A stretch of DNA of 59,703 bases from an uncultured Rickettsiales bacterium. Lineage in GTDB: Bacteria > Pseudomonadota > Alphaproteobacteria > Rickettsiales > CAIJLX01. Position numbers and translations under genes: made by a program. The notes under the pieces are model-generated. The model worked only from the letters and a program-made list of their open reading frames with translations. It was not told the origin of the DNA and made no database searches. The number at the start of each line of letters is the position of its first letter. The first letter of the stretch is position 1. The stretch lies in NCBI GenBank assembly GCA_964414595.1, contig CAYPXJ010000001.1:53443-113145 (forward strand). The letters run 5' to 3'. Below, in pieces: positions 10,424 to 47,413 of this stretch.

Positions 10424-10455
10424 TCGCTACGAGTTCTCCGATTATATTATCAGGG

Positions 10456-13129: not shown

Positions 13130-13185
13130 AAATCTCCTTGGTTATGAGCCAAGCTTATGCAGAGTCGAAAAACCCGGAAGGGGGG

Positions 13186-15215: not shown

Positions 15216-15252
15216 CCATCTACTTAAGCAGTGCTAGCACTGCTTAAGTAGA

Positions 15253-15255
<3 letters not shown>
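15216..15255 (-). terminator. Perfect 40-bp palindrome abutting and overlapping the 3' CCA of tRNA-Pro(UGG); likely an intrinsic terminator or processing hairpin
   Basis: ccatctacttaagcagtgct|agcactgcttaagtagatgg is its own reverse complement. On the minus strand it is followed by TTTAGG. Confidence 0.6.
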
Positions 15256-15507
<252 letters not shown>

Positions 15508-15590
15508 AAAGAGAACTATAAAATGAAGCGGGCGATGCAATAGCAGGAAATTTCTTGCACCGCAACTTCTGCATTGTGTATGGTCGCCGA

Positions 15591-17248: not shown

Positions 17249-17251
17249 GAA

Positions 17252-20215: not shown

Positions 20216-20224
20216 GAGATAACT

Positions 20225-22867: not shown

Positions 22868-23473
22868 ATGGAAAACCAAGAACGACTGAGCGCCCTTCTC
22901 TCCCGCTTCTCGCAGGAACTGCAAAAGCGAGATGCCATATCTTTGCAGGAAATCTGCACCTTTTTTGAAGAGCGGACCTTCTTTTTCCTGCTTATTATTA
23001 TTAGCGCCGTGATAGCCGTGCCGATACCCTTACCGGGCATAAAATCGGTGATGGCGCTGCCCTGCCTGCTGCTCACTTTTCAGGTCATGATAGGCCGCAA
23101 AACGCCCTGGTTGCCCAAAAAAATCGGTGCCACACGGCTTTCATCGCAGCAATTAAATAATAGCGTTACCTGGCTGCTGAAACATTTGCGTAAACTCGAA
23201 AACCGCATTCGCCCGAACATGCTGCATCTGAGTAGCGAACGGTTTGAGCCCCTCGTATCGCTAGGCCTGCTGATTATCAGCGCGTTTATTCTTCTGCCCG
23301 CACCGGGCACCAATGAAATTCTCGGTTTAGGGGTTTTGGTGACTTCGATTGGCATGCTCGAGCGCGACGGGCGTATTATATTAGGCGGGCTGATTTGGGG
23401 CTTATGCGTGTGCGTGGGGATGGCATTACTCGTGTGGATTTTTGGAACCACCATCTTCCACGAACTGACTTAA
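22868..23473 (+). CDS. exoD: Exopolysaccharide synthesis protein ExoD family (membrane)
   Basis: 201 aa. ISLQEICTFFEERTFFFLLIIISAVIAVPIPLPGIKSVMALPCLLLTFQVMIGRKTPWLPKKI matches the ExoD family layout. Confidence 0.75.
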   Translation: MENQERLSALLSRFSQELQKRDAISLQEICTFFEERTFFFLLIIISAVIAVPIPLPGIKSVMALPCLLLTFQVMIGRKTPWLPKKIGATRLSSQQLNNSVTWLLKHLRKLENRIRPNMLHLSSERFEPLVSLGLLIISAFILLPAPGTNEILGLGVLVTSIGMLERDGRIILGGLIWGLCVCVGMALLVWIFGTTIFHELT

Positions 23474-24729: not shown

Positions 24730-24738
24730 GTCCCTCTC

Positions 24739-25662
24739 CTAACGCGCAAGCGTGTGTGATGCGCCTGCTGCTTTTGCGTCTTTCAAATCCCCGGTTTTTC
24801 CGGCGCTGGAAATCTGCGCCTGTAATGCTTCATTTTCCTCGCGTAATTTATGCACTTCGCCAGCATGATACGCTTCCGGCAGCGCCACTTTAATGCCGAG
24901 ATCCTTCAGCATGACGTTCGCATAAACCTGCAATTTTACAGGGTCTTTGAGAATTTCACGCTTCTCTGCACGCGTAAGCTTTTTCAAATCCTTGCCAAAT
25001 TTCTGACCGATTTCATACGCCATGCGCAGCCGCACGCGTGACATATCCGAGCGCCCGAATACTTTGTGATTATCCAACGCCGAATCGATCGACTGGAATA
25101 ATTTTTTCGACATTTCGGTATCGTACGGTGCGAAACGGCGCTCATTCACCACATCGCATTTCGCGGCACCCACACCCTTTGCATAACCGAGCGTCAATGC
25201 TTCCATATCCGAACTGACCTTGGGCACCGGTTCGGAAAGTTCGCGCTGCACGTAATTAAATGCGCCCTTCACCACAATCGCGAGCAATTCGTTTAACATG
25301 TAGGCCTGCTCAGGATGATTCGGATCATTCAGCCCAAGCGCCACATATTGCGTGACCCAACTTGTCGCCTGGAAAAGGTTGGAATCCTGCGAGGGATAAA
25401 ACAAGCTGTAATCCACGCCATCTTCCAACACGTCGTCAAATCGCGCCAGCGTGCGACGAATCGGATTTTGGTATTTCAATTTGATAAGCGCTTTTTCCAA
25501 CATGTCTTCTTCGGCATTGGAAAGCAGCATGCGCGAAAGATCCACCCCGCGGCTGGTTTGCAGCGCATAAGTCATCCCGCCGGTACGACCCGTGCCGTCA
25601 ATCTTCTCGAGTAAGGCCTGCTGACCTAACGCTGGACCACTATTTTCAACCTGCGCAACCAT
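24739..25662 (-). CDS. Hypothetical 307-aa protein
   Basis: Long ORF co-oriented and near-contiguous with 23470..24729. It ends in TAG. No family recognised. Confidence 0.55.
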   Translation of the reverse strand: MVAQVENSGPALGQQALLEKIDGTGRTGGMTYALQTSRGVDLSRMLLSNAEEDMLEKALIKLKYQNPIRRTLARFDDVLEDGVDYSLFYPSQDSNLFQATSWVTQYVALGLNDPNHPEQAYMLNELLAIVVKGAFNYVQRELSEPVPKVSSDMEALTLGYAKGVGAAKCDVVNERRFAPYDTEMSKKLFQSIDSALDNHKVFGRSDMSRVRLRMAYEIGQKFGKDLKKLTRAEKREILKDPVKLQVYANVMLKDLGIKVALPEAYHAGEVHKLREENEALQAQISSAGKTGDLKDAKAAGASHTLAR

Positions 25663-32519: not shown

Positions 32520-34772
32520 GTGACTATTTCTGATCACAATATTCCACCGTCTGGCGTAAATAAGCCGGAAAACCAAGGTGCACGCCCAGCGTCCGCGCCG
32601 CAAGGCGGAGCGTCGTCTGCTAATTCTCCAAAAAATAATAGTAACGGACACGCGCAGGGCGATAATTTCAGTTCTGATTTTGTTTTCGGCACCAGCAGTT
32701 TTCCAATGTCCGGCAGTACTGACGCACCAAAACCTAAGGAACCGGAAGTTGAAATCCTCGCGCCGGAAGACCTAGAGCCGGAAAAACCGCAAGCCGAACC
32801 CTATAATCCCGAAGAACACGAAACGCACGATATCGCGTCTTATAAATTTGATGAGGATAATATCGTCTATGCGGATCAGAGCCATCGCCAGGCCGCAAAA
32901 GAAGCGGGCGGCAAGAAAGCGGAAAAGCAGCGCGATAAAAACGTAAAAGACGAAGATAGATTCGGCAAATCAAGCCAGAAAGAAAAAACGGTCAAAGCAT
33001 CAGAAATGATGAATAAAAACCGTAACCAGGTTTCCACCGACGTACAGGATTCAAGCCGCCCCTTACGTATCGGTGAAAAACTGGTGCAAAAAGGTCTTAT
33101 CTCACCAGACCAACTTGAAATCGCACTCAAAACGCAGCGCAGCTTGCATTCCAGCCAAAGCAAAATGCTGGGTTCGATTCTCGTGGAGATGGGTTTTATC
33201 ACCGAAAGCGCGCTGGGTGAAGTGCTCGCCGAATCGACCGGCGTTATTAAATTCGATCCGAAATCAACGGTACTCGATTCCAACCTGATTCGTCAGGTGC
33301 CGAAAGAAACCTGCTTACGCCATAAAGTGGTGCCGGTACTTTTGGACGGTGAATCGATTTATCTCGCGATGGTGGATATTTATAACGTGCTCGCGATCGA
33401 CCAGATTCAACGTATCTTCCCCAAAAACTATAAGATTGTACCCGTCTATTGCGGCGAATCGCAAATTCTTGAGATTATCGATCAGTATTACGATTACGAA
33501 ATGTCGGTCGATGGTATTTTGCGCGAAATCGAAACCGGCGAACGCGATCCAAAAGCGCTGGCAAGCGGCGATGCCTATATTAACCCGACCGTCCGTTTGG
33601 TGGATTCGATTCTGGCCGACGCGGTGAAGCGCGGCGCTTCGGACTTGCACTTCGAACCGGAAGATAACTTCCTGCGCCTGCGTTACCGTATCGACGGTAA
33701 ATTGCAGCAGATTCGCAGCTTCCACAAAGATTATTGGCCTTCCATCGCGGTACGTATCAAAATTATTTCCGGCATGAACATCGCGGAAACGCGTTTGCCG
33801 CAGGATGGTCGTATCACCATGAACGTACTCGGCCGTAACGTCGATTTCCGTGTGGCGTCGCAACCCACGATTCACGGTGAAAACTTCGTACTTCGTATTT
33901 TGGATAGAAAAGCCGATACGGTTGAACTCAATAAACTTGGCTTCAATGCGGAAAAAGAGCGCCTGCTCAAAAACCTGATTAAACGCCCGGAAGGCGTGGT
34001 GGTGATCACCGGCCCGACAGGTAGCGGTAAAACCACAACGCTTTATTCGATTCTGCACCACCTGAATACGATTGATGTGAACATCATGACGCTCGAAAAC
34101 CCGGTGGAATTTCAGATGTCGATGGTGCGCCAATCGCAAATTAACCCGAATTACGGGATGGATTTTGGCTCGGGTATTAAATCGATTATGCGTCAAGACC
34201 CGGATATCATCCTGGTCGGTGAGGTGCGTGACGAAGAATCGGCGCAGATGGCGCTGCGTGCCGCAATGACCGGTCACCAAGTATATACCACGCTGCACAC
34301 GAACGATGCGCTCGGTGCGATTCCGCGTCTGATCGATATTGGTATCAAACCGGCGATGCTTTCCGGCGCATTGATTTGTTGTATGGCGCAGCGTCTAGGC
34401 CGCCGCCTGTGCGATTGCGCCGAAACGCGCGAAGCATCGGAATACGAATCGCGCATTCTGGGCGTTGATCCGCATAATGCGCCACAACTGCGTTATCCGG
34501 TGGGCTGCGAGCGTTGTAACAATACAGGTTATAAAGGCCGTGTGGCGATTGTGGAACTTCTGCCTATCGACCGTGAACTTGATGATATGATTGCGAAGAA
34601 TATGTCGCGCAAAGATATGATGGACTACGCACTTTCCCAAGGTTTCACGCCGATGATGGAAGACGGTATTGCCAAAGTACTGCAAGGCACAACCTCTCTG
34701 GAAGAACTGATTGAAACGATCGACCTTACCGACCGCATCATCGCGGTAGAAAAAGAGCTAGGGATGAAGTAA
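32520..34772 (+). CDS. GspE/PilB-family secretion/pilus assembly ATPase with a ~180-aa low-complexity N-terminal extension
   Basis: T2SSE_N/MshEN-like segment (RIGEKLVQKGLISPDQLEIALKTQ...), Walker A GPTGSGKTTT, Asp/His boxes (IMRQDPDIILVGEVRD, GHQVYTTLHTND) and a tetracysteine cluster (CDC...CERC). GTG start with a GAGGAG RBS. Confidence 0.9.
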   Translation: MTISDHNIPPSGVNKPENQGARPASAPQGGASSANSPKNNSNGHAQGDNFSSDFVFGTSSFPMSGSTDAPKPKEPEVEILAPEDLEPEKPQAEPYNPEEHETHDIASYKFDEDNIVYADQSHRQAAKEAGGKKAEKQRDKNVKDEDRFGKSSQKEKTVKASEMMNKNRNQVSTDVQDSSRPLRIGEKLVQKGLISPDQLEIALKTQRSLHSSQSKMLGSILVEMGFITESALGEVLAESTGVIKFDPKSTVLDSNLIRQVPKETCLRHKVVPVLLDGESIYLAMVDIYNVLAIDQIQRIFPKNYKIVPVYCGESQILEIIDQYYDYEMSVDGILREIETGERDPKALASGDAYINPTVRLVDSILADAVKRGASDLHFEPEDNFLRLRYRIDGKLQQIRSFHKDYWPSIAVRIKIISGMNIAETRLPQDGRITMNVLGRNVDFRVASQPTIHGENFVLRILDRKADTVELNKLGFNAEKERLLKNLIKRPEGVVVITGPTGSGKTTTLYSILHHLNTIDVNIMTLENPVEFQMSMVRQSQINPNYGMDFGSGIKSIMRQDPDIILVGEVRDEESAQMALRAAMTGHQVYTTLHTNDALGAIPRLIDIGIKPAMLSGALICCMAQRLGRRLCDCAETREASEYESRILGVDPHNAPQLRYPVGCERCNNTGYKGRVAIVELLPIDRELDDMIAKNMSRKDMMDYALSQGFTPMMEDGIAKVLQGTTSLEELIETIDLTDRIIAVEKELGMK

Positions 34773-34785
34773 AATTACTTCATCC

Positions 34786-35991
34786 ATGCCCTCATACACA
34801 TACAAAGCCATAAACGCGCGCGGGTCTAAAATTAAAGGCACGATGACGGCCGATAACCCGATTGAATTGGAAACCAAAATTGCCAAGCTCGGGCTCGATT
34901 TATTAAACTTCAAGGAAGTGAAGCAGAAAACCATGCTGCCCTTCCTGGGCCGCATCAAGCCTAAAGAACTCATTATGTTCTGTATTCATATGGAACAGTT
35001 GGAAAAGGCGGGCGTGCCGATTCTCGATGCGGTTGCTGACATGCGCGACACCAGCGATAATATGAAAATGCAGGATGTCATGGGCAAAATCCATGAATCG
35101 CTCAAAGGCGGTAAACTTTTATCGGAAGCGCTGGGCGAACATCCGCGCGTCTTTGACGATACATTCGTGGGGCTTATTGCCGCTGGCGAGCGCACGGGTG
35201 ATATGGCCGCTTCCTTCGGCCACCTCGCGCACCACCTTAAATGGCAGGAAGATTTGAAGCGTAAGGTTAAAAAAGCCACGCGTTACCCCATCATTCTTAT
35301 TTTCATTCTCTCGGGCGTAATCTCGCTGATGATGATGTTTGTCGTGCCGAAAATGTCGGACTTCCTTAAAAACCAGGGCTTCGATCTACCTTTCTACACC
35401 ATCTGGCTAATTGCGGTTTCGGATGCGTTTGTGAATTATTGGTATTTGATGTTCGGCGTTCCCATCGCGTTGTTTATTTTGGTCACGTTCCTTTACCGTG
35501 TCAGCGATGACTTTGCATACAATATGGATGCCATCGTATTGAAAATTCCCAAAATTGGCGAAGTGATGCGTAAAATTGAGCTATCGCGGTTTTCACAATT
35601 CTTCATGGTGACTTTCGTTAGCGGTATCGACATGATCGAATGTATGGAAACCTCGGAACGCGTGGTGCATAACCGTGTCGTGAAAGAGGCAATTTTCCTT
35701 GCGAAACAAGCCGTTTCTGAAGGTAATCAGCTAACCGACGCGCTGCGGATCTCCAACCAGTTTCCAAACCTGGTGATTCGCATGTTTAAAGTGGGCGAAG
35801 ATTCGGGCGAAATGCAGAACGCCCTGGAAAATATCAGCTTCTTTTATGACCGCGAAGTCAATGATGCCGTGGATGCCATGGTGGAAATGATTCAGCCGAC
35901 CATGACAGTGGTTTTGGGCGGCATTATGTTTTGGATTATCGTTGCCGTATTCGGCCCGCTCTACGCAAGCTTCGAAAAGATTAAATTTTAG
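34786..35991 (+). CDS. GspF/PilC-family inner-membrane platform protein
   Basis: 401 aa with two repeated T2SSF domains (MLEAGVPIL-like LEKAGVPILDAV; GEDSGEMQNALENISFFYD) and three hydrophobic segments. Confidence 0.9.
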   Translation: MPSYTYKAINARGSKIKGTMTADNPIELETKIAKLGLDLLNFKEVKQKTMLPFLGRIKPKELIMFCIHMEQLEKAGVPILDAVADMRDTSDNMKMQDVMGKIHESLKGGKLLSEALGEHPRVFDDTFVGLIAAGERTGDMAASFGHLAHHLKWQEDLKRKVKKATRYPIILIFILSGVISLMMMFVVPKMSDFLKNQGFDLPFYTIWLIAVSDAFVNYWYLMFGVPIALFILVTFLYRVSDDFAYNMDAIVLKIPKIGEVMRKIELSRFSQFFMVTFVSGIDMIECMETSERVVHNRVVKEAIFLAKQAVSEGNQLTDALRISNQFPNLVIRMFKVGEDSGEMQNALENISFFYDREVNDAVDAMVEMIQPTMTVVLGGIMFWIIVAVFGPLYASFEKIKF

Positions 35992-36258
35992 GTCCTGCAG
36001 ACATTCATTTCGCCTTTTTCGCGGTATGCAGATATGTCCGTCCGCTAGGCGAACCGTGCAGAGCGTAGTGGGGCCTACGAACAAGCGGTTCAACGACGCG
36101 GGCGAACATATCTGCACCGCCCTCTGGGTTTGGCCGAAAAGACGGATTGCTACGTTAAAAGCCTTGGAAATATGCGCGGCTATTCCACGCAGCTTTTTCC
36201 TTGCACTCTGTCTTTTCGGCTGCAAATGAAAAAAGGTGAAATGAATATCTGCAGGACC
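35991..36258. repeat. 268-bp element with ~30-bp imperfect terminal inverted repeats and nested internal stems (MITE-like element or structured RNA; identity unknown)
   Basis: IR-L 35991-36020 (ggtcctgcagacattcatttcgcctttttc) matches the reverse complement of IR-R 36228-36258 at 28/30 positions. Internal stems pair 36027-36045 with 36098-36116 (16/19), and 36133-36145 with 36208-36220 (13 bp including one G-T). Confidence 0.7.
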
Positions 36259-36333
36259 TCGCGAAAATTCCTTTTCGAATCCCACGTGCTATACTATGGT
36301 ACGTGACGGATGAGGTGGGTGTAGCTAGCACGT

Positions 36334-37983
36334 ATGGCAAATATCGGGCTGAAATCGCGCAAATTCGTAATTAACGTAGGGGACGAAGGCGCTGTCGTCG
36401 TCTATTGGGACGGCAAGGCAATCGCCGGTCGTTACTTCTATGCCTCGCCCAGTAATGACGAATTCAAAAAAGTCATTATGTCGGACCCCCAGGCGAGCGT
36501 GTATCTGCTCGCGGATACGGTCGATCAAACTTTTAACCAACAAGTCTTGCCGCCGGTTAGCTCGCTGACAATCGGTGACATGGTGCGCCGCCGCCTGAAA
36601 AAAGAATTCGGGGAAAAAGATATTTCCACCGCGCGCCAGATTAGCCGCAATAAAACGGGCCGCAAAGATTGGAATTACACCTTCATCTCCATACGTAACG
36701 AAGGTCCCTTCGCGGAATGGTTGGATGCGTTCAAGGATTTGCCAAACCGCCTGGCAAGCATTCATTCGCTGCCTATTGAAACGGAATCTTTTGTAAAATC
36801 ACTGCGTGGCAGTATGAAATCCGGCAATGGCACGAAAAGCCGTTGGGAACTGCTTGTCACGCACAACAAAGTTGGCGGTTTTCGCCAAACGGTTTTCAAA
36901 GATGGCAAACTGGTATTCACACGTATCGCGCAACCTGTGGGTGGCAACGCACCAGCCGTAATCGCCGGAAACATTGAACAGGAAACCATCAACACGATGG
37001 AATTCATTCGCCGGTTCGAATTCAATCCGCAAGAGACGCTGGATATTTACATCATCACCAGCGCGGAAGTGAAAAAAGAATTGGAAACCGCGAAGCTCGC
37101 GGAACGCCGCGCGACCGTGCTTACGCCTTTCGAAGTTGCCGGAATGTTAGGCCTTGCGGGCTCTGCGCAGGAAAAAGATCGTTTTGCCGATGTTGTACTT
37201 GCCGCACATTTCATCAAAGCCAATAAAGCGGTTATCAAATTCGCTACCCCCGTTATTCAACAAGTTAACCAATATTTTTTCCTCTCGCTGGCCGCTCGGG
37301 CTATCGCCATTGTGGCCGTGCCCGCCGCCATTGTTTACGGCATTCTGCTTTATACAGATATTTCCGCGCTGCAAGTGGCGCTGAACCGCGCTAAATCCCA
37401 GCTCGCGGAAGCCAAACGCACACAGGCGGAAGTTGAGCAGAAACATGCGGCCAATGCGGAACGCGGTCAGGTGGTGCTTGGCCTCATTCAGGTGATGAGC
37501 AGCCTCGAAAAAACACAGGTAAATCCGCTGGAGTTTTTCAGCATGCTCGGTGGAGTAAAAGGTGAAAAACTTTGGGTGCGCGATGCGAATGTGCAAATCG
37601 TTTCCGCCTTACAAAACGCAACGCTGAAAGCGCCCGAAATTCGCGCCAATATTGCCATGGATTATTACAATGCACCCCTGCGCATTGAGGAACAGATTTT
37701 TGAAAATCAGCAGATTGAGCGCAGCTTCAAAAACCAATTTCCCGAACAGGAGATTGTATTTTCTGGCTTTGCAAACCGCGCCAATATTGAGTTGAGCATC
37801 GATACCGCAAAAGCGCCCGAGCCAAACCAAGTCAACAAAGTTACGGTAACCATTAACGGCCCACTGCCCTTACCTTCGCCTGAGCCTGCAATTAAAACTA
37901 CGCCGGAAATTGGCGCACCGACAGCACCCCTCGCGCCAACGGTTCCAATAGCCCCTGCAACAACACCTGTGAAACCTCATTAA
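36334..37983 (+). CDS. Bitopic membrane protein, GspL / PilM-PilN-fusion (MshI)-like assembly component (tentative)
   Basis: 549 aa: a ~310-aa cytoplasmic N-domain, one TM (aa ~314-340, YFFLSLAARAIAIVAVPAAIVYGILLY), a coiled coil, a periplasmic domain and a Pro-rich tail. The assignment rests on architecture and position after the pilB/pilC-like genes only. Confidence 0.45.
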   Translation: MANIGLKSRKFVINVGDEGAVVVYWDGKAIAGRYFYASPSNDEFKKVIMSDPQASVYLLADTVDQTFNQQVLPPVSSLTIGDMVRRRLKKEFGEKDISTARQISRNKTGRKDWNYTFISIRNEGPFAEWLDAFKDLPNRLASIHSLPIETESFVKSLRGSMKSGNGTKSRWELLVTHNKVGGFRQTVFKDGKLVFTRIAQPVGGNAPAVIAGNIEQETINTMEFIRRFEFNPQETLDIYIITSAEVKKELETAKLAERRATVLTPFEVAGMLGLAGSAQEKDRFADVVLAAHFIKANKAVIKFATPVIQQVNQYFFLSLAARAIAIVAVPAAIVYGILLYTDISALQVALNRAKSQLAEAKRTQAEVEQKHAANAERGQVVLGLIQVMSSLEKTQVNPLEFFSMLGGVKGEKLWVRDANVQIVSALQNATLKAPEIRANIAMDYYNAPLRIEEQIFENQQIERSFKNQFPEQEIVFSGFANRANIELSIDTAKAPEPNQVNKVTVTINGPLPLPSPEPAIKTTPEIGAPTAPLAPTVPIAPATTPVKPH

Positions 37984-37985
37984 CC

Positions 37986-38621
37986 ATGCGCATTCAACAA
38001 ATCAAAAAAACGCTGATTCGTGATTTGGGCATCGCCTTGGGTGTGGTGCTGGTGTTGGGCGGCATACTTTTTTACATCCTTTCCATTCGCAACGAGATGC
38101 GCGAAACGGAGGCAAAAACCAAACGCGAGGTGCAGCTGGCGCAAAACCGCATCACCACACTTGAAGCGGAAAATAAGCAGTTTCTGGAAGCTTTCGAAAC
38201 CTACGACAAAATCCCGCAAAATAAATTGGCGTATGATCTCGAAGAAACGACCTTACGCTCGGAAACGTTGCGCCCGATTATCACTGATTTATCGCGGCGC
38301 TACCGCTTGCAGAATGTACAGGTTGTGCTGAAGCAGGGGGTAAAATTGGGGCCTGCATTTACCAGCCGTACCGTCTCTTCTTACTCGGGTAGTTTGGAAA
38401 TGAAATTTGACGCCATGACCGATGAAATGGTGCTTTCTTTCATTGATTCCTTCCAGCAAGTCATGCCTGGCTTTATCAATCTTCAGTCGCTGAAAATGAC
38501 AAAAACAGCGGAAATTACCGCCGCCACATTCCAACAGGTACAAAATCAGCAAACGCCGGCGCTTGTGAAAGTCGAACTGGTGATGAACTGGGTCACCTTA
38601 AAAGAAGAGGCGCGCCGATGA
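37986..38621 (+). CDS. Bitopic membrane protein, PilO/GspM-like (tentative)
   Basis: 211 aa: N-terminal TM (LGIALGVVLVLGGILFYILSI), a coiled coil and a ~120-aa periplasmic domain. It starts 3 nt after the previous gene. Confidence 0.4.
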   Translation: MRIQQIKKTLIRDLGIALGVVLVLGGILFYILSIRNEMRETEAKTKREVQLAQNRITTLEAENKQFLEAFETYDKIPQNKLAYDLEETTLRSETLRPIITDLSRRYRLQNVQVVLKQGVKLGPAFTSRTVSSYSGSLEMKFDAMTDEMVLSFIDSFQQVMPGFINLQSLKMTKTAEITAATFQQVQNQQTPALVKVELVMNWVTLKEEARR

Positions 38622-39646
38622 TACGTTTCGCACTCTTCGTTTTTATTAGTCTTTTTGTAACGCAGGTTTTTGCGCAGACGCCCCCCACAAAAAATCCCAT
38701 TTTGCAAAATCTGCCTAAAGATATTGTGCCGAATGTGGATATTCGTCAGCTTCCTTCCAGCGTACCTTCGTTTGAAGATTTGAAAATACGCTTCGCCAAT
38801 AATTTGGCGTTTAACGGCAGCAATTTCGAAGCCTTGCCGTGGCAGGGTTCGGTCATGTTCCGCGACGAAGATCTCACCGCATTGTATGAAGCCGTTAAAA
38901 AGCAACTTCCTTTCAGTGCTTCGCAAGGCGAAGTGGGTATTGAAGTGGTAACGCCGAGCGTCGCACCCGCGTTCTACCTTAATTCCGTGTTATATAATTC
39001 ACCAAAAAACTGGACTATCTGGCTTAACAACCGCCGTATTCGCGCCGGCGCGAAATTTCCAAAACTCGAGATCAGCCGCATTAAGGCGGACAAAGTTGAG
39101 TTTATTTGGGAAACGGCTGATATCGATTTTATCTCGCCGGGCTGGGCAGAAAAAGTTCCCTCCATCCCTACCAAACAGCGCAAAGCCTATGGTAAATGGG
39201 CCTATAAATCTCCCGCCGGTGATATTTTCGTGGATGAAACCAAACAATTCGTGCGCTTTATATTAAGCCCGCACCAAACGTTTGTTTCGCGCACCATGCG
39301 TATCGCAGAAGGCCGTCATAAGAGCACGTTCCTGCAACAAGTCACCAACGGCCAGCCGCAACTCACTACCGCACCCAATACCGGACCGAATACGCTTGGC
39401 GTCGGCGAGCCAATGCAACTTCCTGCAACGAGTCTGCCCGCTCAGCCGGGCGCGGGAAGCCCGGCATCGATCGGCGTTCCCGCAGCCGCCCCTGCCGCAG
39501 CACGCGTGGCAACGCCAGCAGGCATGCCCGCGACAACCGCGCTACCGCCGGTGACACCGCTTCCGCCCGTTCCAAATATGCCTGCAACACCTGCTCCTAC
39601 CCCTAACCTCGCGCCGCCGGCGATGCCGCCAGCGGGCAATTTTTAA
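38618..39646 (+). CDS. Secreted/periplasmic protein, PilP / GspC-HR-like core plus a ~100-aa Pro/Ala-rich tail (tentative)
   Basis: Signal peptide MIRFALFVFISLFVTQVFAQ. The segment FYLNSVLYNSPKNWTIWLNNRRIRAGAKFPKLEISRIKADKVEFIW resembles the small beta-domain pattern of PilP/GspC. ATGA overlap with the previous gene. Confidence 0.4.
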   Translation: MIRFALFVFISLFVTQVFAQTPPTKNPILQNLPKDIVPNVDIRQLPSSVPSFEDLKIRFANNLAFNGSNFEALPWQGSVMFRDEDLTALYEAVKKQLPFSASQGEVGIEVVTPSVAPAFYLNSVLYNSPKNWTIWLNNRRIRAGAKFPKLEISRIKADKVEFIWETADIDFISPGWAEKVPSIPTKQRKAYGKWAYKSPAGDIFVDETKQFVRFILSPHQTFVSRTMRIAEGRHKSTFLQQVTNGQPQLTTAPNTGPNTLGVGEPMQLPATSLPAQPGAGSPASIGVPAAAPAAARVATPAGMPATTALPPVTPLPPVPNMPATPAPTPNLAPPAMPPAGNF

Positions 39647-39660
39647 CCCGGTAAATTTTC

Positions 39661-40392
39661 ATGACAAAAAATACGCCGCTTAAAGTTTTAAATATCAGCA
39701 AAAGTTTCACGGAAAAGCCGGTGCTTAGCAAAGTTTCGCTCAGCGTAAACCCGGGCGATATTTATGGTTTCGTGGGCCTGAACGGCATGGGCAAAACCAC
39801 GCTTATCAAAATTATTCTCGATTTACTGGAGCGGGACAGCGGCGAGATCGAACTCTTCGGCGAAAAAAATCAGCTCGCGCGTGTGCGCAAAAATATCGCT
39901 TATTTGCCGGAAAAATTTCAACCCTCCATTCATCTCAAGGGAAAAGAATTTTTGGGCCTCACCGTTTCTTATTACGGCAAAAAGCTCGATATGAAAAAAG
40001 CCGAAGACTACGCTACGCGTCTTGCGCTGCGCCCCGAAGTGCTCAAGCATAAAATCACCAAATATTCAAAAGGCATGAGCCAAAAGCTTGGCCTCATCGG
40101 CACGCTGCTTACCGGTGCGCCGCTGCTGAGTCTTGATGAACCGATGAGCGGCCTTGACCCGCTAGCGCGCATTCAGCTCAAGCGTGTGTTGCTCGATTAC
40201 GCTAAACAAGGCCATACGATTTTTTTCACCTCGCATATCTTGGTCGATATTGAAGAGATTTGTAACAACATCGCCGTATTGCATGATGGTAAAATTATTT
40301 TTACCGGCACGCCCGCTGGCTTCAAAAAGAAATTTGAAAAGGGCAAAAAAGGTTTAGAACACGCCTATCTTAACGCGATTGGCGTCGCATAA
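39661..40392 (+). CDS. ABC transporter ATP-binding protein (ABC-2/CcmA-like), with no adjacent permease gene
   Basis: Walker A GLNGMGKTT, signature YSKGMSQKLGL and Walker B LLSLDEP. It lies 14 nt after the preceding gene. Confidence 0.85.
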   Translation: MTKNTPLKVLNISKSFTEKPVLSKVSLSVNPGDIYGFVGLNGMGKTTLIKIILDLLERDSGEIELFGEKNQLARVRKNIAYLPEKFQPSIHLKGKEFLGLTVSYYGKKLDMKKAEDYATRLALRPEVLKHKITKYSKGMSQKLGLIGTLLTGAPLLSLDEPMSGLDPLARIQLKRVLLDYAKQGHTIFFTSHILVDIEEICNNIAVLHDGKIIFTGTPAGFKKKFEKGKKGLEHAYLNAIGVA

Positions 40393-40402
40393 AGGCATTG
40401 CT

Positions 40403-43276
40403 TTAACGGCGGTAAAAACGCCGCTCCCACAAATCTTCCACTTTTTTCGTATCCCACTTTTCCTCAGGCGCATCGATAGAGCCGGTGATACTTTGAACGA
40501 TGGGCAAACGTGTGCGCTCGCTGATTTCTTTCACTTTCACTTGCTGCGTCATCGAATTATCCAGCGGCAAGGCGTAATCACTGCGAATATTATATTCCCA
40601 TGTGCCAAAATTAATCACACCCTGCACACGGGTTTCCGGCAACATGCCATGCACCATTAAAAAATTATCAAAACCAAACACGCCCTGACCAATACGAAAG
40701 CCGCCATACGCATCACTAAAGCTGGTCATGCCCGCGGTGACATATTTGCGTATCGACTGTCGCATCGCCTGAAGCGAACTGACCTTGATAAGCTCGTTAG
40801 TGAGCGACGGCAAATCAAAACCTTTGGTTTGCACTGGGCGCGCACGAATGCTGCCACTACCTTGCGATTGCGCGATCACATCGCGCACGGTATTCCCCAC
40901 GGAACTGACAAACGCATTCAAACTTACGCGCCCTTCCAGACGCGTCGCGCCCATAAGGCGCTTCAAAAATTGACCCGTATCCACGTTTACGAAACTCAGG
41001 TAAGCGCTGCCGGCCGGAACATCGGCGATGCTCATCACCGCCTGACTTATTTCAAATTTTCCATCAAAAATCTGGCCACGAATTTTTTTAATAAGCAACT
41101 GCTGGCGATTAAGTTCGATATCCATATTCACATCGCTCATATCCATATCGGCATAATGCAATTTGCCAAAATAAGCGCGCAGCTTGCCGTCGTAATATTT
41201 GAGCGGGCTGGTTGAAAATATTTCCTGCGACCAGCGCGGCGACATGGGCTGCTCCGCAGCCATAGCGGGCGCCTTTGCCGTTTCACCGGTGCGGAAAATT
41301 TTCAGTTTCGGAAATTGATCAATATCCAAATGTTTAAAATTCAGATCAAACGCCAGATAGGGCCGCAGATTGGTCGCATCAATTTTCACCGTTCCAGAAA
41401 GCGAAATGCCAGGCGATTCCAGCGTCATCTCCTCTAAGCTCATCAGGCCGGAACCAAAACGAATAAAGGCTGACGCCTGTGAAAAATGCTGCCCATGATA
41501 GGTAAGATCGCGCACGGTAATTGAAAAATCGAGGGAGCCGAATGCACCTTCCACCGAGCGCAGCAAATCAAATTTCTTCAAAGGCTCATTCAGTTTATAA
41601 ATCGGATTTCCTGCATCGCGATCCGGATCAGCAAGCAGGTTGCTCATTTCCGGTATATATTCATCCAGATCCAATTCATCGAGCGTCAGCGTCAATGTGG
41701 AACTTTCATCGCCGGTGCGTTTCACCACAAATTTTCCGCCCTGAATCGTGGTGTTATCCACTTTCGCTACAAGGCCCTCAAAATAAAGTTCCCGCGAGGA
41801 AATGGTGAGGTTATTCGACACGGAGAAAATTTTAAGGCGGCCCGGTGTAATAGGCGGCAAATCCACTTTCAGCCATGTCAGGAAAGTGAGTAAATCGCGG
41901 CCCTCAAGTCCAAAAGCGCCCTGGAATTTTAGTGGCAGCGCTTGTACCGAACCATCGTCCGTGATCACGCCACTCATGCTTAATTGCGTTTCGCCCGGCA
42001 AAGCGGCTGATACATTACGCGCCTGTAATTGCCCATTGCCTGTGCTGCGTAAATTCAAACGTATGTTGCGAATCGCTTCTTTACGAAACTGCACTTCTGC
42101 CGCAGAAATATTGATTTCTACTTCCGCCTCATTCAGCAAATCGATATCGTAATATTTACCAAAACCGACGGCACCGCGGCGATAATTTTCAGGCGCAACA
42201 TTTCCTTCAACAAAATTATCCGCGCGAAATGTTTCTGCGCCTTCCGCCAGCAAGCCTTCCCGATCCAGATCCAATTTCTCAAGTACGATATTCACATCCA
42301 ATTTCGGCTTTTCAGCAAAAGTAAGGGTCATTTCACCAATGCCTTTCACCGCGTCGGCGTGCATGGTGAGATCGTTTAATTTCAGCGTTGATTGTGAAAA
42401 ACTGGCAATACTGGTCATGAAAATTCGTGTATCGCCTGCCTGGGCGTCCTTCGGTGCGAAAGCTTGACCAATACTTGAGCTCAGTCCCAGCGCTTCCGCA
42501 AAAGGCAGCAAGGAAGGATCAAGATGCGCTTCAAATTTGCCGCTGAAAGCATAGGCGTTGGCGCGTTGTAATTTACCACTTACTACTAACTCCGACGCAC
42601 CCGGCATAAGCGCCAATTCAAATTCCGGCGTACTTTCTTTCAGATTGCCGATGCGCGCTTTGACACCCGTTGTCACACCGTCACCACGCAACGAAGCGTC
42701 GATACGGTAAGGACCATCCGGCCCGCCAACATCCAGATTGCCATCCAGATAACCAAGTTTTTGCGCATAGCCGCTTTGCTGATGCAAGAAATAGGTTTCG
42801 ACATCCGAAAACACAATGGAGGGCATGGGTGCGCCGCTTCCCGCCTGTGCAGCCGTACCGTCTAAACGCCAATTTTGACGGCCATCTTTAAGCCATTCGA
42901 GATAAAGTTTTCCGCGCACAATTTTTACGCGGCTGCTACTGGCATCTCCGCCTATGAAAGAAAGGAGCGAGGGTTCGGCGATCACACGTTCCGCGGTGAA
43001 GAAAAATTCCTGCGATGCACCGCTGATATTATGCACCACCACATCTTCCACTACGACCTGCGGGAACGGTTTGAATTCCAACTTGACGCCGCCGCGTATA
43101 ATCATCTCCCGCCCCAGCGAATGGCTTATCTGTTTTACCAGCGCATCGGCTTCCTTATTCCAATCAATCGAAAAAGCATAAAACGCGATACCACCGGCAA
43201 TGACAGTCAGTATCAAAAGGCCGGAGAGTATCCATTTGGCGATATTGGTAAAAAAATCGAAAATGCGATTCAGCAT
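40403..43276 (-). CDS. AsmA family outer-membrane biogenesis protein
   Basis: ~957 aa with an N-terminal anchor (ILSGLLILTVIAGGIAFYAF) and a long beta-rich body typical of AsmA. The likely start is ATG 43276 (MLNRIFDFF), 1 nt after the metF stop. The track ORF extends to 43321. Confidence 0.75.
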   Translation of the reverse strand: MLNRIFDFFTNIAKWILSGLLILTVIAGGIAFYAFSIDWNKEADALVKQISHSLGREMIIRGGVKLEFKPFPQVVVEDVVVHNISGASQEFFFTAERVIAEPSLLSFIGGDASSSRVKIVRGKLYLEWLKDGRQNWRLDGTAAQAGSGAPMPSIVFSDVETYFLHQQSGYAQKLGYLDGNLDVGGPDGPYRIDASLRGDGVTTGVKARIGNLKESTPEFELALMPGASELVVSGKLQRANAYAFSGKFEAHLDPSLLPFAEALGLSSSIGQAFAPKDAQAGDTRIFMTSIASFSQSTLKLNDLTMHADAVKGIGEMTLTFAEKPKLDVNIVLEKLDLDREGLLAEGAETFRADNFVEGNVAPENYRRGAVGFGKYYDIDLLNEAEVEINISAAEVQFRKEAIRNIRLNLRSTGNGQLQARNVSAALPGETQLSMSGVITDDGSVQALPLKFQGAFGLEGRDLLTFLTWLKVDLPPITPGRLKIFSVSNNLTISSRELYFEGLVAKVDNTTIQGGKFVVKRTGDESSTLTLTLDELDLDEYIPEMSNLLADPDRDAGNPIYKLNEPLKKFDLLRSVEGAFGSLDFSITVRDLTYHGQHFSQASAFIRFGSGLMSLEEMTLESPGISLSGTVKIDATNLRPYLAFDLNFKHLDIDQFPKLKIFRTGETAKAPAMAAEQPMSPRWSQEIFSTSPLKYYDGKLRAYFGKLHYADMDMSDVNMDIELNRQQLLIKKIRGQIFDGKFEISQAVMSIADVPAGSAYLSFVNVDTGQFLKRLMGATRLEGRVSLNAFVSSVGNTVRDVIAQSQGSGSIRARPVQTKGFDLPSLTNELIKVSSLQAMRQSIRKYVTAGMTSFSDAYGGFRIGQGVFGFDNFLMVHGMLPETRVQGVINFGTWEYNIRSDYALPLDNSMTQQVKVKEISERTRLPIVQSITGSIDAPEEKWDTKKVEDLWERRFYRR

Positions 43277-43277
43277 A

Positions 43278-44153
43278 TTAGCGTCCCATCGCCTTACACA
43301 AAGCGGAGGTGAGGTCGCCACGGTTTAATGTATAAAAATGGAATTCTGTCGCGCCGCCTTTAGCCAAATCGCGAATCATCTCCGCCGCGATCTTATACGC
43401 AGCCGCTCGCATCGCCGCCGGATTTTCCTCATGCGGCTCAAGCGCTGCGCGCACCTTCTCTGGAATACTTGCACCGCACATCGCGCTGAAGCGTGCGATT
43501 TGCTTATAACTATGTATGGGCACAATTCCAGGAACGATAGGCACACGAATACCTTTTTTGCGCGCACGCTCTAGAAAACGGAAATACATATCGCTTTCAA
43601 AGAAATATTGCGTGATCGCGCGCGTGGCGCCTGCGTCTATCTTGCGTTTCAGATAATCGAGATCCGCTTCTGAACTGACCGCCTCCGGGTGCCCTTCTGG
43701 GTATGCCGCTACACTCATTTCAAAATCCGCCACGTTTTTAAGCCCTGCGACCAAATCGTTGGCATAAGCATAGCCGCCCGCATAGGGCACATAGGGCTTT
43801 TGGCCACCGGGTACATCGCCGCGCAGCGCGACAATATGCCGCACGCCTAGCTGCCAATAATCCCGCGCTACCGCGTCTATCTCTTCCCGCGTGGCATTGA
43901 CGCATGTCAAATGCGCGGCGGGTTTGAGGCTAGTTTCCTTAAGGATACGTGCAAGCGTTTGGCGTGTTCTTTCCCGCGTAGAGCCCCCCGCGCCATAGGT
44001 CACCGAAACAAAATCAGGCTTGTGCGCTTGAAGCCCCTCCACCGCCTGCCAGAGCACCCCCTCCATTTCGGGGGTTTTCGGCGGGAAAAACTCGAAGGAA
44101 ATCCTTGCTTTTGCAAGCGAAGGTAGGTCTGCGATATACGGTAAACTTTCCAT
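43278..44153 (-). CDS. metF: Methylenetetrahydrofolate reductase
   Basis: ISFEFFPPKT, VSVTYGAGGSTRERT, HLTC and IVALRGD motifs. Confidence 0.9.
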   Translation of the reverse strand: MESLPYIADLPSLAKARISFEFFPPKTPEMEGVLWQAVEGLQAHKPDFVSVTYGAGGSTRERTRQTLARILKETSLKPAAHLTCVNATREEIDAVARDYWQLGVRHIVALRGDVPGGQKPYVPYAGGYAYANDLVAGLKNVADFEMSVAAYPEGHPEAVSSEADLDYLKRKIDAGATRAITQYFFESDMYFRFLERARKKGIRVPIVPGIVPIHSYKQIARFSAMCGASIPEKVRAALEPHEENPAAMRAAAYKIAAEMIRDLAKGGATEFHFYTLNRGDLTSALCKAMGR

Positions 44154-44354: not shown

Positions 44355-45059
44355 ATGCGCATCGCACTTATTCTTTTTGCCCTGGTATTTTTAGCTTCCA
44401 TGCCCGCTCACGCACAGGTTCAGAAGCTTTCACAAGATGATATGGTCGTTCAGGTATATGACCCGCTTGAGCCCATGAACCGCGGTTTGTTCCGCTTTTC
44501 GCAGGTGGTGGATCATTTGGTGCTGCAGCCGGTGGCAAAAACCTACCGTTTTGTGACGCCCCGCCCCGCCCGCACCCGCGTACGCAACTTTTTCCAGAAC
44601 TTGGGCGAACCTGTTAACTTCGTAAACGCTATCTTACAGGGCGATGCGAACCAGGCATTTACCACTTTCTGGCGCTTTGTTCTTAACAGCACCTTTGGCC
44701 TGGGCGGTGTATTTGATAACGCCAGCCAATGGGGTTTGCCTTATCGCGCTGAAGATTTCGGCCAAACGCTGGGATTTTATGGCTTAGGTTCCGGCCCATT
44801 CCTCTATATTCCTATCATTGGCCCATCGAATTTCCGCGATACGACCGGCCTGGTTGCCGATATGTTTACGGATCCGGTTAATTATCTGGAAGATACAACC
44901 GTTATTGTTGTGAACGTAGCGGATGGTATTCAGCGCCGTGAGAGTCTGCTTGATATCACGCGCGATATTGAAAACACCTCGCTCGATCCGTATGCGGCGT
45001 ATCGTAGCGCCTTTACGCAAAAACGTCGTGATTTAATCAGCAACGGTGCTTCGCGTTAA
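44355..45059 (+). CDS. mlaA: MlaA/VacJ family lipoprotein
   Basis: DPLEPMNRGLFRFSQVVDHLVLQPVAKTYRFV and NFFQNLGEPVNFVNAILQGD are canonical VacJ blocks. A signal sequence is present. Confidence 0.85.
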   Translation: MRIALILFALVFLASMPAHAQVQKLSQDDMVVQVYDPLEPMNRGLFRFSQVVDHLVLQPVAKTYRFVTPRPARTRVRNFFQNLGEPVNFVNAILQGDANQAFTTFWRFVLNSTFGLGGVFDNASQWGLPYRAEDFGQTLGFYGLGSGPFLYIPIIGPSNFRDTTGLVADMFTDPVNYLEDTTVIVVNVADGIQRRESLLDITRDIENTSLDPYAAYRSAFTQKRRDLISNGASR

Positions 45060-45148
45060 GTTTCAAATCTGCTATAATCCAATTGGTTCTTAACATCGGC
45101 CCGTGTTATCTGGCTGTATCGGAATTCTAACTTATTTGAGGAAAGTTT

Positions 45149-45760
45149 ATGCTTCGTGTTATCGGCGCTGTTTTAACGATCTTACTGATACTTCCTACCT
45201 TTGCTTCTGCCGGCGTTCCGGAAGTCAAAAACTTCATCAATAATCTCACGACAACGACCATCAACATTCTCGAAAACGAAAAACTAAACGACAAAACCAA
45301 AGAACAAAAAATGACGCAGCTTTTCACCAATTCCGTGGATTTGAATTGGATGGGCCGTTTTGTTTTGGGCCGTTACTATAACCGCATTTCCCCCACCGAA
45401 CGTAACAAATACACGCAAGCTTACCGCGATTACATGGTTTATAGTTACGTGCCGAAATTCCGCAGTTACGGCGGCCAGAAAGTGATGATTAAAAACGTAC
45501 GCGCAGAAGAAAAAGGCGAATATTTTGTCGAATCTGAAATCGTTAGCGAGGGCGAGCCGCCCGTGCGCATGTCTTACCGTTTGCGCGGTGCGGGCGATGG
45601 TTACAAAGTGGTGGATATTATTCCTGAAGGCATCAGCATTCTCACCACGCAACGTTCGGAATTCAGCTCTATCATGGCAAGCGGCAGTATCAATGATCTC
45701 ATCGCGCAGATGAAGCGCCGCACGCAGGAAAATAGAGAGAGAGCGTCGGAAGATAACTAA
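45149..45760 (+). CDS. mlaC: MlaC/Ttg2D family phospholipid-binding periplasmic protein
   Basis: Signal peptide plus MGRFVLGRYYNRISPTERNKYTQAYRDYMVYSY...YKVVDIIPEGISIL, the family pattern. Confidence 0.8.
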   Translation: MLRVIGAVLTILLILPTFASAGVPEVKNFINNLTTTTINILENEKLNDKTKEQKMTQLFTNSVDLNWMGRFVLGRYYNRISPTERNKYTQAYRDYMVYSYVPKFRSYGGQKVMIKNVRAEEKGEYFVESEIVSEGEPPVRMSYRLRGAGDGYKVVDIIPEGISILTTQRSEFSSIMASGSINDLIAQMKRRTQENRERASEDN

Positions 45761-45799
45761 TCGCTTTTATCTTCAGCAATTTTTGATAGGGTAAGCCCT

Positions 45800-47413
45800 A
45801 TGGCTCGTGCGACACCTATTCTAAAAGTTGAAAAACTCTCGCTGAATTTTCCAGATAGTTCGGCTGCGCGACCGGGCAAAAAAAGTGGTCATATTTTAAA
45901 TAACGTATCGCTTACGCTCTATAGCGGCAAAACGCTGGCCCTTGTGGGCGAAAGCGGTTCTGGCAAAACCGTCACCGCGCTTTCCATCCTGCAATTACTT
46001 GGCGATGCACGCTACGGCAAAGACAGCAAAATACTTTTTGAAAAAAATAATCTCCTTTCGCTTGAAGCCGAAAAAATGCGCACGATTCGTGGCCATCGCA
46101 TCGCCATGATTTTCCAGGAGCCGATGACCTCCTTAAACCCTTTGCATACGATTGGCAAACAACTGCGCGAAGCGATTTTGCTGCATAAATCCATGTCGCG
46201 TGCGGCAGTCAATGCGCGGGTGAAAGAATTGCTCGCGCTTGTACAACTTGAATCGCTCCATGCGCGTTTGGAAGCCTATCCCCATGAACTTTCGGGTGGC
46301 CAACGCCAACGTATTATGATCGCAATGGCGCTTGCGCATAATCCCGATATTCTGATTGCCGATGAGCCGACCACGGCGCTCGATGTGACCGTGCAGAAGC
46401 AAATTCTTGCGCTACTCGAATCTATTCAGGAAAAGCTCGGCATGGCGATTCTGCTCATCACGCACGATCTGCATCTGGTGCGGAAGGTAGCGCATCATGT
46501 GGCGATTATGCGTGAGGGTGAAGTGGTGGAATCCGGCGCAACTTCGCAAATTTTCAGCAAGCCGGAAACAGCCTACGCCAAAAAATTACTGAGTGCCGAA
46601 CCGCGCACTGCGCCGGTTAAGCTTCCTGAAAAACCGAAGAAAATTTTTGAATGCAGTATGCTTACGGTGGAATTTCCACGGCAATCTTCCTGGTTTAAGC
46701 AACAAGATCCGATTCGCGTGATCGATGATGTAAAACTTAGCGTGCATGAAGGCCAAACACTTGGCATCGTGGGCGAAAGCGGCTCTGGCAAAACCACGCT
46801 TGCGTTGGCGCTGCTGCGCCTCATCCCTTCAAAGGGAACCATTATTTACGATAATAAATATATCCGCGTACTCGAACCGGAGAAAATGCGTACGCTGCGG
46901 CGGGATTTACAAATTGTGTTTCAAGATCCGTTCGCAAGCCTTAACCCACGCATGACCGTAGAAGGCGTAATCACCGAAGGTTTACGCGCGCATCGCATCG
47001 GGGCTAATGATCTTGCCCGCCGGGATATTGCTGCAGAAATGCTGCAGAAAGTGGGCCTCGAAACATCGATGCTTGATCGCTATCCGCATCAATTTAGCGG
47101 CGGTCAGCGTCAGCGTATCGCCCTTGCGCGCGCGCTTGCGGTTTCGCCGAAGTTGCTGGTGCTTGATGAACCAACATCCTCACTCGATATTATCGTGCAG
47201 TGTGAAATTATCGAGCTGCTGAAAAAATTACAGGCGAAAGAAAAGCTCGCTTATATTTTCATCAGCCATGATCTGCGCGTCATCAAATCGATAAGCCATC
47301 AGGTGCTGGTATTGCACCATGGAAAAGTGGTGGAATCCGGCACGCGCAACGAAGTGCTCGATCGTCCGAAACATAGTTATACACAAAATCTTCTGGAAGC
47401 CGCGTTCGGCTAA
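45800..47413 (+). CDS. Duplicated-ATPase ABC protein of the oligopeptide/microcin C (YejF-like) type
   Basis: Two full ABC cassettes: GESGSGKT x2, LSGGQRQR x2 and ADEPTTALD / LDEPTSSLD. Confidence 0.85.

Follow-up and report, generated by a model that had tools for sequence, protein, structure and literature searches.

The window analyzed here is a 59,703-nt stretch of DNA from an uncultured Rickettsiales bacterium (GCA_964414595.1, CAYPXJ010000001.1), and the block under study occupies its positions 32520-40392. As described in the initial annotation, the block is made up of six open reading frames (ORFs), all on the + strand, and a structured DNA element (Table 1). The six genes, hereafter the cassette, encode an ATPase, a membrane platform, three accessory proteins of 549, 211 and 342 aa, and an ATP-binding cassette (ABC) ATPase. 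The family matches of the first ATPase and the platform, together with the PilM/GspL-like fold of the 549-aa protein, place the locus in the type IV pilus (T4P)/type II secretion system (T2SS) superfamily, as had been proposed. Read 5' to 3', the junctions between the ORFs are 13 nt, 342 nt, 2 nt, a 4-nt overlap and 14 nt. The close coupling described for the three accessory genes is confirmed at the ATGA overlap of the 211- and 342-aa genes, as is the 14-nt spacing of the ABC gene, whereas the gap between the 549- and 211-aa genes, given as 3 nt, is 2 nt (TAA-CC-ATG). This spacing suggests that the operon is co-transcribed; a promoter and terminator scan of the locus gave a result at chance level. 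Low-coverage matches to the window were present in four biofilm metagenome runs of one study.

Table 1. Features of the block at 32520-40392 of the window, with the basis of each assignment and the median identity of the relatives' proteins to the window protein (TM, transmembrane; NBD, nucleotide-binding domain; AF2, AlphaFold2; MITE, miniature inverted-repeat transposable element; REP, repetitive extragenic palindrome; HR, homology region).
Feature	Position	Strand	Basis	Median identity
PilB-like extension ATPase, 750 aa	32520-34772	+	Pfam, NCBIfam, solved relatives	61%
PilC/GspF-type inner-membrane platform, 401 aa, two T2SSF domains, 3 TM helices	34786-35991	+	Pfam, NCBIfam	54%
270-bp palindromic element, MITE- or REP-like	35990-36259	.	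Inverted repeats, folding	
Predicted PilM-PilN fusion, GspL/MshI-type architecture, 549 aa	36334-37983	+	AF2 model, Foldseek, family profile	36%
Bitopic inner-membrane protein, PilO/GspM-like by position and topology, 211 aa	37986-38621	+	TM prediction, synteny	23%
Secreted periplasmic protein, possibly HR-type (GspB/GspC/PilP-like), 342 aa	38618-39646	+	Signal peptide, sub-threshold T2SSB	28%
Soluble ABC-2/DrrA/ABCA-type ABC ATPase, NBD only, 243 aa	39661-40392	+	Pfam ABC_tran, motifs	53%

The operon is conserved. A scan of one genome per species returned 117 relatives, the best 80 of which are all alphaproteobacterial metagenome-assembled genomes (MAGs). Synteny was counted over 81 non-redundant, species-level alphaproteobacterial MAG loci, and 85 loci were searched for the palindromic element and used for clustering the neighboring genes. 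The order ATPase-platform-549-211-342-ABC is kept in approximately 70 of the 81 loci, with median gaps, in gene order, of 8, 15, -4, -4 and 11.5 nt; neighboring genes overlap or are less than 30 nt apart. Because this order recurs in approximately 70 independent species-level genomes, the arrangement is far beyond chance. In the literature, we found nothing specific on such a system in Rickettsiales or Micavibrio.

The first gene encodes a member of the GspE/PilB ATPase family (Pfam T2SSE, 404 bits; MshEN, 64 bits). Its NCBIfam scores of 505 bits for PilB (TIGR02538, cut-off 675.65) and 482 bits for GspE both lie under the equivalog cut-offs, and it passes NF053729, which covers the cyclic di-GMP (c-di-GMP) motif, with 58 bits against a cut-off of 38. 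A 24-aa MshE-type c-di-GMP-binding motif, RIGEKLVQKGLISPDQLEIALKTQ, begins at residue 183; of 65 cassette orthologues, 56 have it. The MshEN motif is not exclusive to mannose-sensitive haemagglutinin (MSHA) pili and also occurs in PilB proteins. The closest solved structures are PilF and PilB, which match in full length over residues 181-737 with 414-400 bits; GspE structures rank below these and align with the C-terminal two thirds only. An N-terminal extension of approximately 180 aa is disordered and of low complexity, and the protein carries a Walker A motif (GPTGSGKT) and a CxC...CxxC motif.

The platform protein matches PF00482 (T2SSF) over two stretches with 156 bits. It scores 288 bits against GspF (TIGR02120) and approximately 246 bits against the PilC models, falling short of every equivalog cut-off. 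The block combines, as expected for a type IVa pilus (T4aP), a GspE/PilB-family ATPase with a T2SSE_N/MshEN region and a two-domain platform, an assignment that holds at the family level rather than the equivalog level.

For the 549-aa protein, AF2 modeling with 40 sequences gave a mean predicted local distance difference test (pLDDT) score of 81, with values above 90 over residues 9-300. The model contains an N-terminal alpha/beta domain, an 88-residue helix (306-393) and an alpha-beta-beta-alpha-beta-beta domain (398-510). These correspond to an actin-like cytoplasmic domain (approximately 9-300), a TM segment continued by a long coiled coil (306-393; single TM helix at 316-340 by hydropathy) and a periplasmic domain (398-510), followed by a Pro-rich tail. 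Foldseek searches of the PDB returned PilM first (5eou, E=6.4e-10; also 2ych and 3jc8_Ma), then FtsA, and aligned cyto-EpsL/GspL structures 1yf5, 4pht and 1w97 at target-normalised TM-scores of 0.62-0.65. The family profile also matched Myxococcus xanthus PilN (3jc8_Na, E=0.0024) over the TM segment, the coiled coil and the first strands. The cytoplasmic domain-TM-periplasmic organization that had been read from the sequence is upheld by these matches. An actin-like PilM fold and a PilN-type bitopic part, both expected of a T4aP, are joined here in a single chain, and the protein is, as modeled, a PilM-PilN fusion, that is, of GspL/MshI architecture.

At the level of sequence families, neither the window's 549-aa protein nor its family has a Pfam or NCBIfam match, and no PilM, PilN or GspL Pfam model was matched by any of 40 family members at E<=1. 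A database search returned at least 289 homologues; none is named, and all come from uncultured Alphaproteobacteria or 'Rickettsiales' MAGs. An exhaustive profile search of public metagenomes placed 1,982 clusters at 50% identity in the family at E<=1e-3, of which 614 reach E<=1e-30.

Hydropathy analysis of all three accessory proteins agrees with the topologies given in the initial annotation. The 211-aa protein has an N-terminal TM segment (16-34), a coiled coil and a C-terminal globular domain. In 76 loci its homologue follows that of the 549-aa protein, the two genes overlapping by a median of 4 nt. An hhalign comparison of the 211-aa family with the PilN-like part of the 549-aa family gave 87.6% probability (E=3.5e-6). 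We dropped this match as proof of homology: when the domains were split, the signal came mainly from the membrane-proximal coiled coil (90%), the globular part reaching only approximately 20%. The resemblance to GspM/PilO that had been noted is borne out for topology but not established for identity, and the label PilO/GspM-like refers only to the position and the topology of the protein.

The 342-aa protein has an N-terminal signal peptide, a conserved beta-rich core at approximately 112-236 and a Pro/Ala-rich tail. The consensus of the family core reads ...YPQFYLxSxVYxxxxDWxVWxNGxKIT...LxVxxIxxDxVxLxW...VxFTLRPNQTF...EGKV. Weak matches to T2SSB (PF16537, GspB) occur in 9 of 52 family members (best E=0.0026), and the family consensus matches the same model at E=0.015 with 15.4 bits (cut-off 28.4) over model positions 2-53 of 60. 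Against the PDB, the trimmed core profile matched GspB (4wfw) at E=0.5 over the stretch that resembles T2SSB, and titin FN3 domains at 1e-5. The signal peptide and beta-rich domain of the proposed PilP/GspC mimic are present, while a PilP/GspC identity is not established, the similarity being to T2SSB/GspB and sub-threshold. Our best guess is that the protein is a beta-sandwich, possibly of HR type and contacting the N0 domains of a secretin.

The absence of a recognizable family that had been noted for the three accessory proteins is confirmed, with no Pfam or NCBIfam match for any of them. Profile searches across their families (40, 56 and 52 members) against PilM, PilN, PilO and PilP likewise gave no such match at E<=1. 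PDB profile searches with whole and trimmed alignments of the 211- and 342-aa families returned coiled-coil noise, titin FN3 and the sub-threshold GspB match only. The three family alignments gave no hhalign signal against single E. coli HofM/N/O/P and GspL/M/C/B sequences, single divergent templates being too weak for this comparison. A homology search with E. coli K-12 GspB, intended to seed a T2SSB profile, returned only near-identical E. coli proteins, none of them with PF16537.

With respect to the other parts of a pilus machine, the 59.7-kb window contains no class III pilin (regular-expression search for leaders; tblastn with the relatives' pilins) and no secretin or prepilin peptidase (phmmer with E. 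coli GspD, HofQ and GspO). A PilT tblastn query hit the core of the PilB-like ATPase only, revealing no separate PilT gene in the window. Pfam scans, which covered nearly all other large ORFs of the window, returned housekeeping genes only, among them RelA/SpoT, PdxJ, RNase III, Era, a Bax1-I family protein, AsmA, MTHFR, MlaA/MlaC, CcmE/CcmF and MutS. The initial annotation was correct that class III leader, peptidase and secretin are missing from the window; their absence as a trait of the system is contradicted by the relatives, which have pilins and Peptidase_A24 and, in one case, a secretin.

In the relatives, T4P parts adjoin the cassette. Class III pilins (GFTL[IV]ELSIVLVIIGLL..., 240-300 aa, above the Pfam N_methyl cut-off) do so in 8 loci and stand immediately after the ABC gene in L001, L021 and L063, and Peptidase_A24 lies upstream of the cassette in L021 and L037. 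PilT-family ATPases are beside it in 51 of the 81 loci, 39 of which carry two, and the relatives' PilT/PilU pass TIGR01420 (420 and 479 bits; cut-off 319). A tetratricopeptide repeat (TPR) protein with weak PilW/Tgl similarity is found in 43 loci. In the window, a TPR protein at 13186-15039 was considered as the counterpart of this cassette-linked protein and rejected, since it combines TPR with a GT41 glycosyltransferase.

A metagenome scan with the pilin alignment added a distant relative, L150. In this 18.3-kb contig of 67.5% GC, the system occupies 4344-18318 on a single strand and comprises a lipoprotein secretin, membrane proteins of 254 and 366 aa, two pilins, the six-gene cassette and PilT; its 342-like gene is short. 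The 705-aa secretin matches GspD (5wln, E=8e-11) and PilQ (4av2, E=8e-7).

The pilins of the clade (L001:14469-16236, L078:4576-5295, L088-L167) form a distinct family of 240-300 aa, often in tandem, with at least 328 confirmed matches in metagenomes. Past the N-methyl leader they share the motifs F..KY..LPGD, E....W.HL and D-x-K-x-DDG....G.

We consider it probable that this operon encodes the motor and alignment parts, at the inner membrane, of a T4aP-like pilus machine that belongs to a large clade of uncultured Alphaproteobacteria and has its remaining parts encoded elsewhere. A T4aP-like machine with these accessory families has so far been found in uncultured Alphaproteobacteria only. 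T4aP genes are usually spread over multiple loci (Denise et al., PMC6668835), so a dispersed layout is ordinary for such a machine. In the mechanism we propose, the hexameric PilB-like ATPase, probably activated by c-di-GMP through its MshEN motif, would drive the PilC/GspF platform and so push membrane pilins into the fibre. The 549-aa protein would merge the roles of PilM and PilN, its actin-like domain holding the ATPase and the platform on the cytoplasmic side and its periplasmic domain pairing with the PilO/GspM-like 211-aa partner. From its PilP/GspB position, the 342-aa protein would link the inner-membrane ring to a secretin encoded elsewhere, which the organism presumably possesses. 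Pilins, prepilin peptidase, PilT/PilU and the pilotin-like TPR protein would be supplied from other loci of the genome.

The sixth gene encodes an ABC ATPase (Pfam ABC_tran, 83 bits; NCBIfam drrA subfamily and GldA models under cut-off) whose motifs are intact (Walker A GLNGMGKT, signature YSKGM, Walker B LLSLDEP, H-loop SH). Hydropathy gives no TM segment for this protein, and its nearest solved relatives are ABCA1/4 NBD2, Rv1218c and NosF. The gene adjoins the 342-aa homologue in 66 of 68 evaluable loci, with a median gap of 11.5 nt and some start/stop overlaps. The distant L150 cluster has it too, in the interval from the 342-like gene to PilT. Since the median identity among orthologues is 53% for the ABC ATPase and 54% for the platform, the former is as constrained as the latter. 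In the two exceptions, L071 and L078, pilins lie upstream of a retained platform-549-211-342 block and both ATPases are absent; the other neighbors are housekeeping genes. The possibility, raised in the initial annotation, of a variant that has recruited another partner is supported insofar as the ABC ATPase is a conserved operon member. From this distribution, the permease-less ABC ATPase appears to be a conserved extra component of the cassette, with a putative function in the machine. The 254-aa polytopic membrane protein of L150 might be the missing ABC-2 permease, but it has no PDB match and no homologue in the other loci.

Most likely, the ABC ATPase is a lineage-specific extra component that energises an unlinked ABC-2 permease needed for pilus biogenesis. 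This proposal draws on the analogy with the sole precedent that we found, the PilGHI ABC transporter of M. xanthus, which is encoded in the pil cluster and, according to the passage of PMC3724824 that cites Wu et al. 1998, is essential for pilin translocation and T4P biogenesis. If the protein were instead a mere syntenic neighbor, the NBD of an unrelated exporter (for example of lipids or drugs) without a role in the pilus, the absence of a permease or other ABC partner from the locus, its generic ABC-2/DrrA/ABCA type and the ABC-less platform-549-211-342 of L071 and L078 would be readily explained. We regard this as unlikely, because the gene lies next to the 342-aa homologue and on its strand in 66 of 68 evaluable loci, which span lineages with only approximately 36% identity between their 549-aa proteins, because the short median gap, the start/stop overlaps and the retention in L150 speak for a tie to the cassette, and because the PilB-like ATPase is missing from L071 and L078 as well. 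The requirement of M. xanthus T4P for an ABC transporter, in the account of PMC3724824 cited above, argues in the same direction.

A different reading of the same conservation is that the ABC ATPase is an integral, permease-less third nucleotide-driven part of the machine, with no separate transporter, and that the whole constitutes an alphaproteobacterial type IV filament (T4F) sub-type with its own accessory families. The ABC ATPase might then bind the PilC platform on its cytoplasmic side, or the PilMN fusion, and could, for instance, gate pilin extraction or switch between extension and retraction. We give this reading no better than a small chance.

The T4aP-like assignment has to be weighed against two related machines. 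In the first, the block would belong to a T2SS or another non-pilus type IV filament machine, in which a short pseudopilus exports folded proteins through a secretin. The platform scores higher against GspF (288 bits) than against the PilC models (approximately 246 bits), the fused cytoplasmic-TM-periplasmic protein has the architecture of GspL and matches cyto-GspL structures as well as PilM, the N-termini of the relatives' pilins weakly match GspG/GspH, and the weak signal in the 342-aa protein points to GspB. However, two PilT/PilU-family retraction ATPases that pass the T4aP model adjoin the cassette in most relatives, and these neighbors make a T2SS improbable. Furthermore, neither the window nor any of the loci contains GspC, GspD or a GspH-K set, the full-length ATPase matches PilF/PilB better than GspE, and the relatives' pilins, at 240-300 aa and in tandem copies, are unlike the conserved GspG.

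In the second, the block would be an MSHA-type pilus locus with equivalents of MshE, MshG, MshI, MshJ and MshK, with the ABC ATPase in place of MshM and the TPR protein as the counterpart of MshN. The ATPase does carry an MshE-type c-di-GMP motif, but MshEN motifs are found in PilB too, and the gene order differs. The same roles are filled in the MSHA system by the GspL/PilN-like MshI, the PilO-like MshJ, the accessory ATPase MshM and the TPR protein MshN (PMC4624765 Table 1); MshM, however, is an ExeA-type ATPase rather than an ABC NBD, and no ExeA-type ATPase is encoded in the locus. MSH systems are also almost always single-locus with the secretin inside (PMC6668835; PMC4624765), whereas the system here is dispersed, with no secretin within 10 kb in 81 loci. 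We consider an MSHA-type locus to be as poorly favored as a T2SS.

Several points weigh against the reading of the block as a T4aP-like motor operon. The call of T4aP over T2SS or MSH rests mainly on the PilT/PilU neighbors, because the ATPase and the platform score under the PilB/PilC and the GspE/GspF equivalog cut-offs alike. Neither the 211-aa protein nor its family (56 sequences from related loci) has a significant Pfam, NCBIfam or PDB sequence match, and the 342-aa protein has no significant PilP/GspC match in Pfam, NCBIfam or PDB sequences. The AF2 model of the latter, built with 20 homologues, is poor (pLDDT 53) and confident only over residues 150-216; Foldseek searches with this model returned nothing below E=0.1. 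Neither the window nor, within 10 kb of the cassette, any of the 81 genome loci encodes a secretin, and the sole cassette-linked secretin is that of one distant relative of 67.5% GC, L150. The pilin, PilD, PilQ and PilT of the window's own organism are parts that we infer. Finally, family clustering over the 85 loci revealed no ABC permease partner in any of them.

The palindromic element between the platform and 549-aa genes had been described as a 268-bp structured member of the block. Its structure is confirmed over 270 bp, with terminal inverted repeats of 30 nt (93% complementary), two internal hairpins and a minimum free energy of -138.7 kcal/mol (z = -10.4 relative to shuffled sequences). 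Its membership in the system is not supported: it is present as a single copy in the window, and no copy was found in the 85 related loci or in the metagenome scan, nor did Rfam give a match. The element begins within the stop codon of the platform gene; compared with orthologues, the C-terminus of the platform protein (...FEKIKF) is intact. In relatives the platform-to-549-aa gap has a median of 15 nt. The contigs of the four biofilm runs, with a depth of 3-7x only, yielded no insertion-free site. The element is a lineage-specific MITE- or REP-like insertion and not a component of the system. Could the insertion, together with the absence of pilin, peptidase, PilT and secretin from 59.7 kb, mark a decaying remnant that no longer builds anything? 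This is very improbable, since comparison with orthologues shows each of the six ORFs to be intact and of full length, their catalytic motifs are preserved, the insertion falls right after a stop codon with the platform C-terminus unchanged, and a dispersed organization is normal for T4aP (PMC6668835).

Different palindromic repeats, unrelated to the element (for example GTCATTGCGAGCGAAGCGAAGCAATCC-like hairpins), are found at the same platform/549-aa junction in a few relatives (among them L016:1960-2213 and L079:9661-9970), and this junction seems to be a recurrent landing site for small palindromic elements. At the preceding junction in the window, a perfect 10-bp stem with a 4-nt loop (GGATGAAGTA-AAAT-TACTTCATCC) occupies 34762-34785, spanning the ATPase stop codon and ending 1 base before the platform ATG; it could influence translational coupling of the ATPase and the platform.

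Elsewhere in the window, the cassette is followed downstream by an AsmA-like gene (40403-43321) and by MlaA, MlaC and a 537-aa protein with two ABC_tran domains (44355-47413). The presence of these AsmA-like and Mla envelope-lipid genes shows that the envelope is diderm. On the - strand, an isoleucyl-tRNA synthetase at 1620-4985 appears split into two ORFs, one with the catalytic tRNA-synt_1 domain (3045-4985) and one with Anticodon_1 plus DUF5915 (1620-3008), with 36 nt between them; the gene could be genuinely split, or the break could stem from a frameshift or an assembly error. Also on the - strand, a 724-aa protein at 10955-13129 that is rich in Gly, Ser, Thr, Asn and Ala and has no Pfam match adjoins a tRNA-Pro gene; it may be surface- or adhesin-like, or the remnant of a mobile element. 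Two ORF pairs have no Pfam match (19292-20965, +, 307 and 246 aa; 23470-25662, -, 419 and 307 aa), one of them with hydrophobic segments and Pro/Ala-rich linkers.

Compared with known systems, the cassette resembles the T4aP of Pseudomonas, Myxococcus and Thermus in its PilF/PilB-nearest ATPase, T2SSF platform, PilM-type domain, PilN-like part and multi-locus layout. Its gene positions match those of PilO and PilP, and the relatives have PilT/PilU, class III pilins, Peptidase_A24 and a TPR protein beside it. It differs from them in the fusion of PilM and PilN, in accessory proteins that match no PilM, PilN, PilO or PilP profile and in the ABC ATPase fixed in the operon. The protein in the PilP position carries a signal peptide, not a lipobox, and a long Pro-rich tail, and the pilins of relatives, at 240-300 aa, are large and have a C-terminal D-x-K-x-DDG motif of their own.

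As with GspL/GspM of the T2SS and MshI/MshJ of MSHA, a protein with actin-like, TM and periplasmic ferredoxin-like parts precedes a small bitopic partner; the ATPase shares the c-di-GMP motif with MshE, and the 549-aa model matches cyto-GspL structures. Unlike these pairs, the cassette gives no T2SSL/GspL, T2SSM or PilN profile match. Unlike T2SS and MSHA, it has no in-locus secretin, GspC or pseudopilin set, its relatives have PilT/PilU, and its accessory ATPase is an ABC NBD. The likeness to M. xanthus PilG-PilH-PilI, an ABC-2-type ATPase embedded in a T4aP cluster, is one of gene context; the cassette has the NBD only, and no PilI permease or PilG equivalent adjoins it in the 81 loci. As in GspA/GspB (ExeA/ExeB), a periplasmic protein with weak T2SSB-like similarity adjoins an ATPase gene, but the similarity is sub-threshold and the ATPase is a soluble ABC NBD rather than a membrane-anchored AAA+ protein with a peptidoglycan-binding domain. 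The type of machine and the fusion state, seen in GspL and MshI, are already known; what is new are the accessory families, for which no model exists, and the fixed, permease-less ABC ATPase.

These findings point to a gap in annotation. The 549-aa family, with approximately 2,000 clusters, has no Pfam or NCBIfam model, and automated tools would score such genomes as having an incomplete or 'generic' T4F system. Profiles for the three accessory families would mend annotation across a clade of uncultured, often 'Rickettsiales'-labelled Alphaproteobacteria. The locus also provides an independent instance of the fusion state that separates PilM plus PilN from GspL/MshI. The link between ABC transporters and T4P has been open since M. 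xanthus pilH, and the cassette offers a cleaner case, in which the operon has an orphan NBD as a fixed member. If the proposed link to a secretin is wrong, how the fibre crosses the outer membrane becomes a question. For the organisms that carry the cassette, pili of this kind may be important in attaching to hosts, prey or surfaces.

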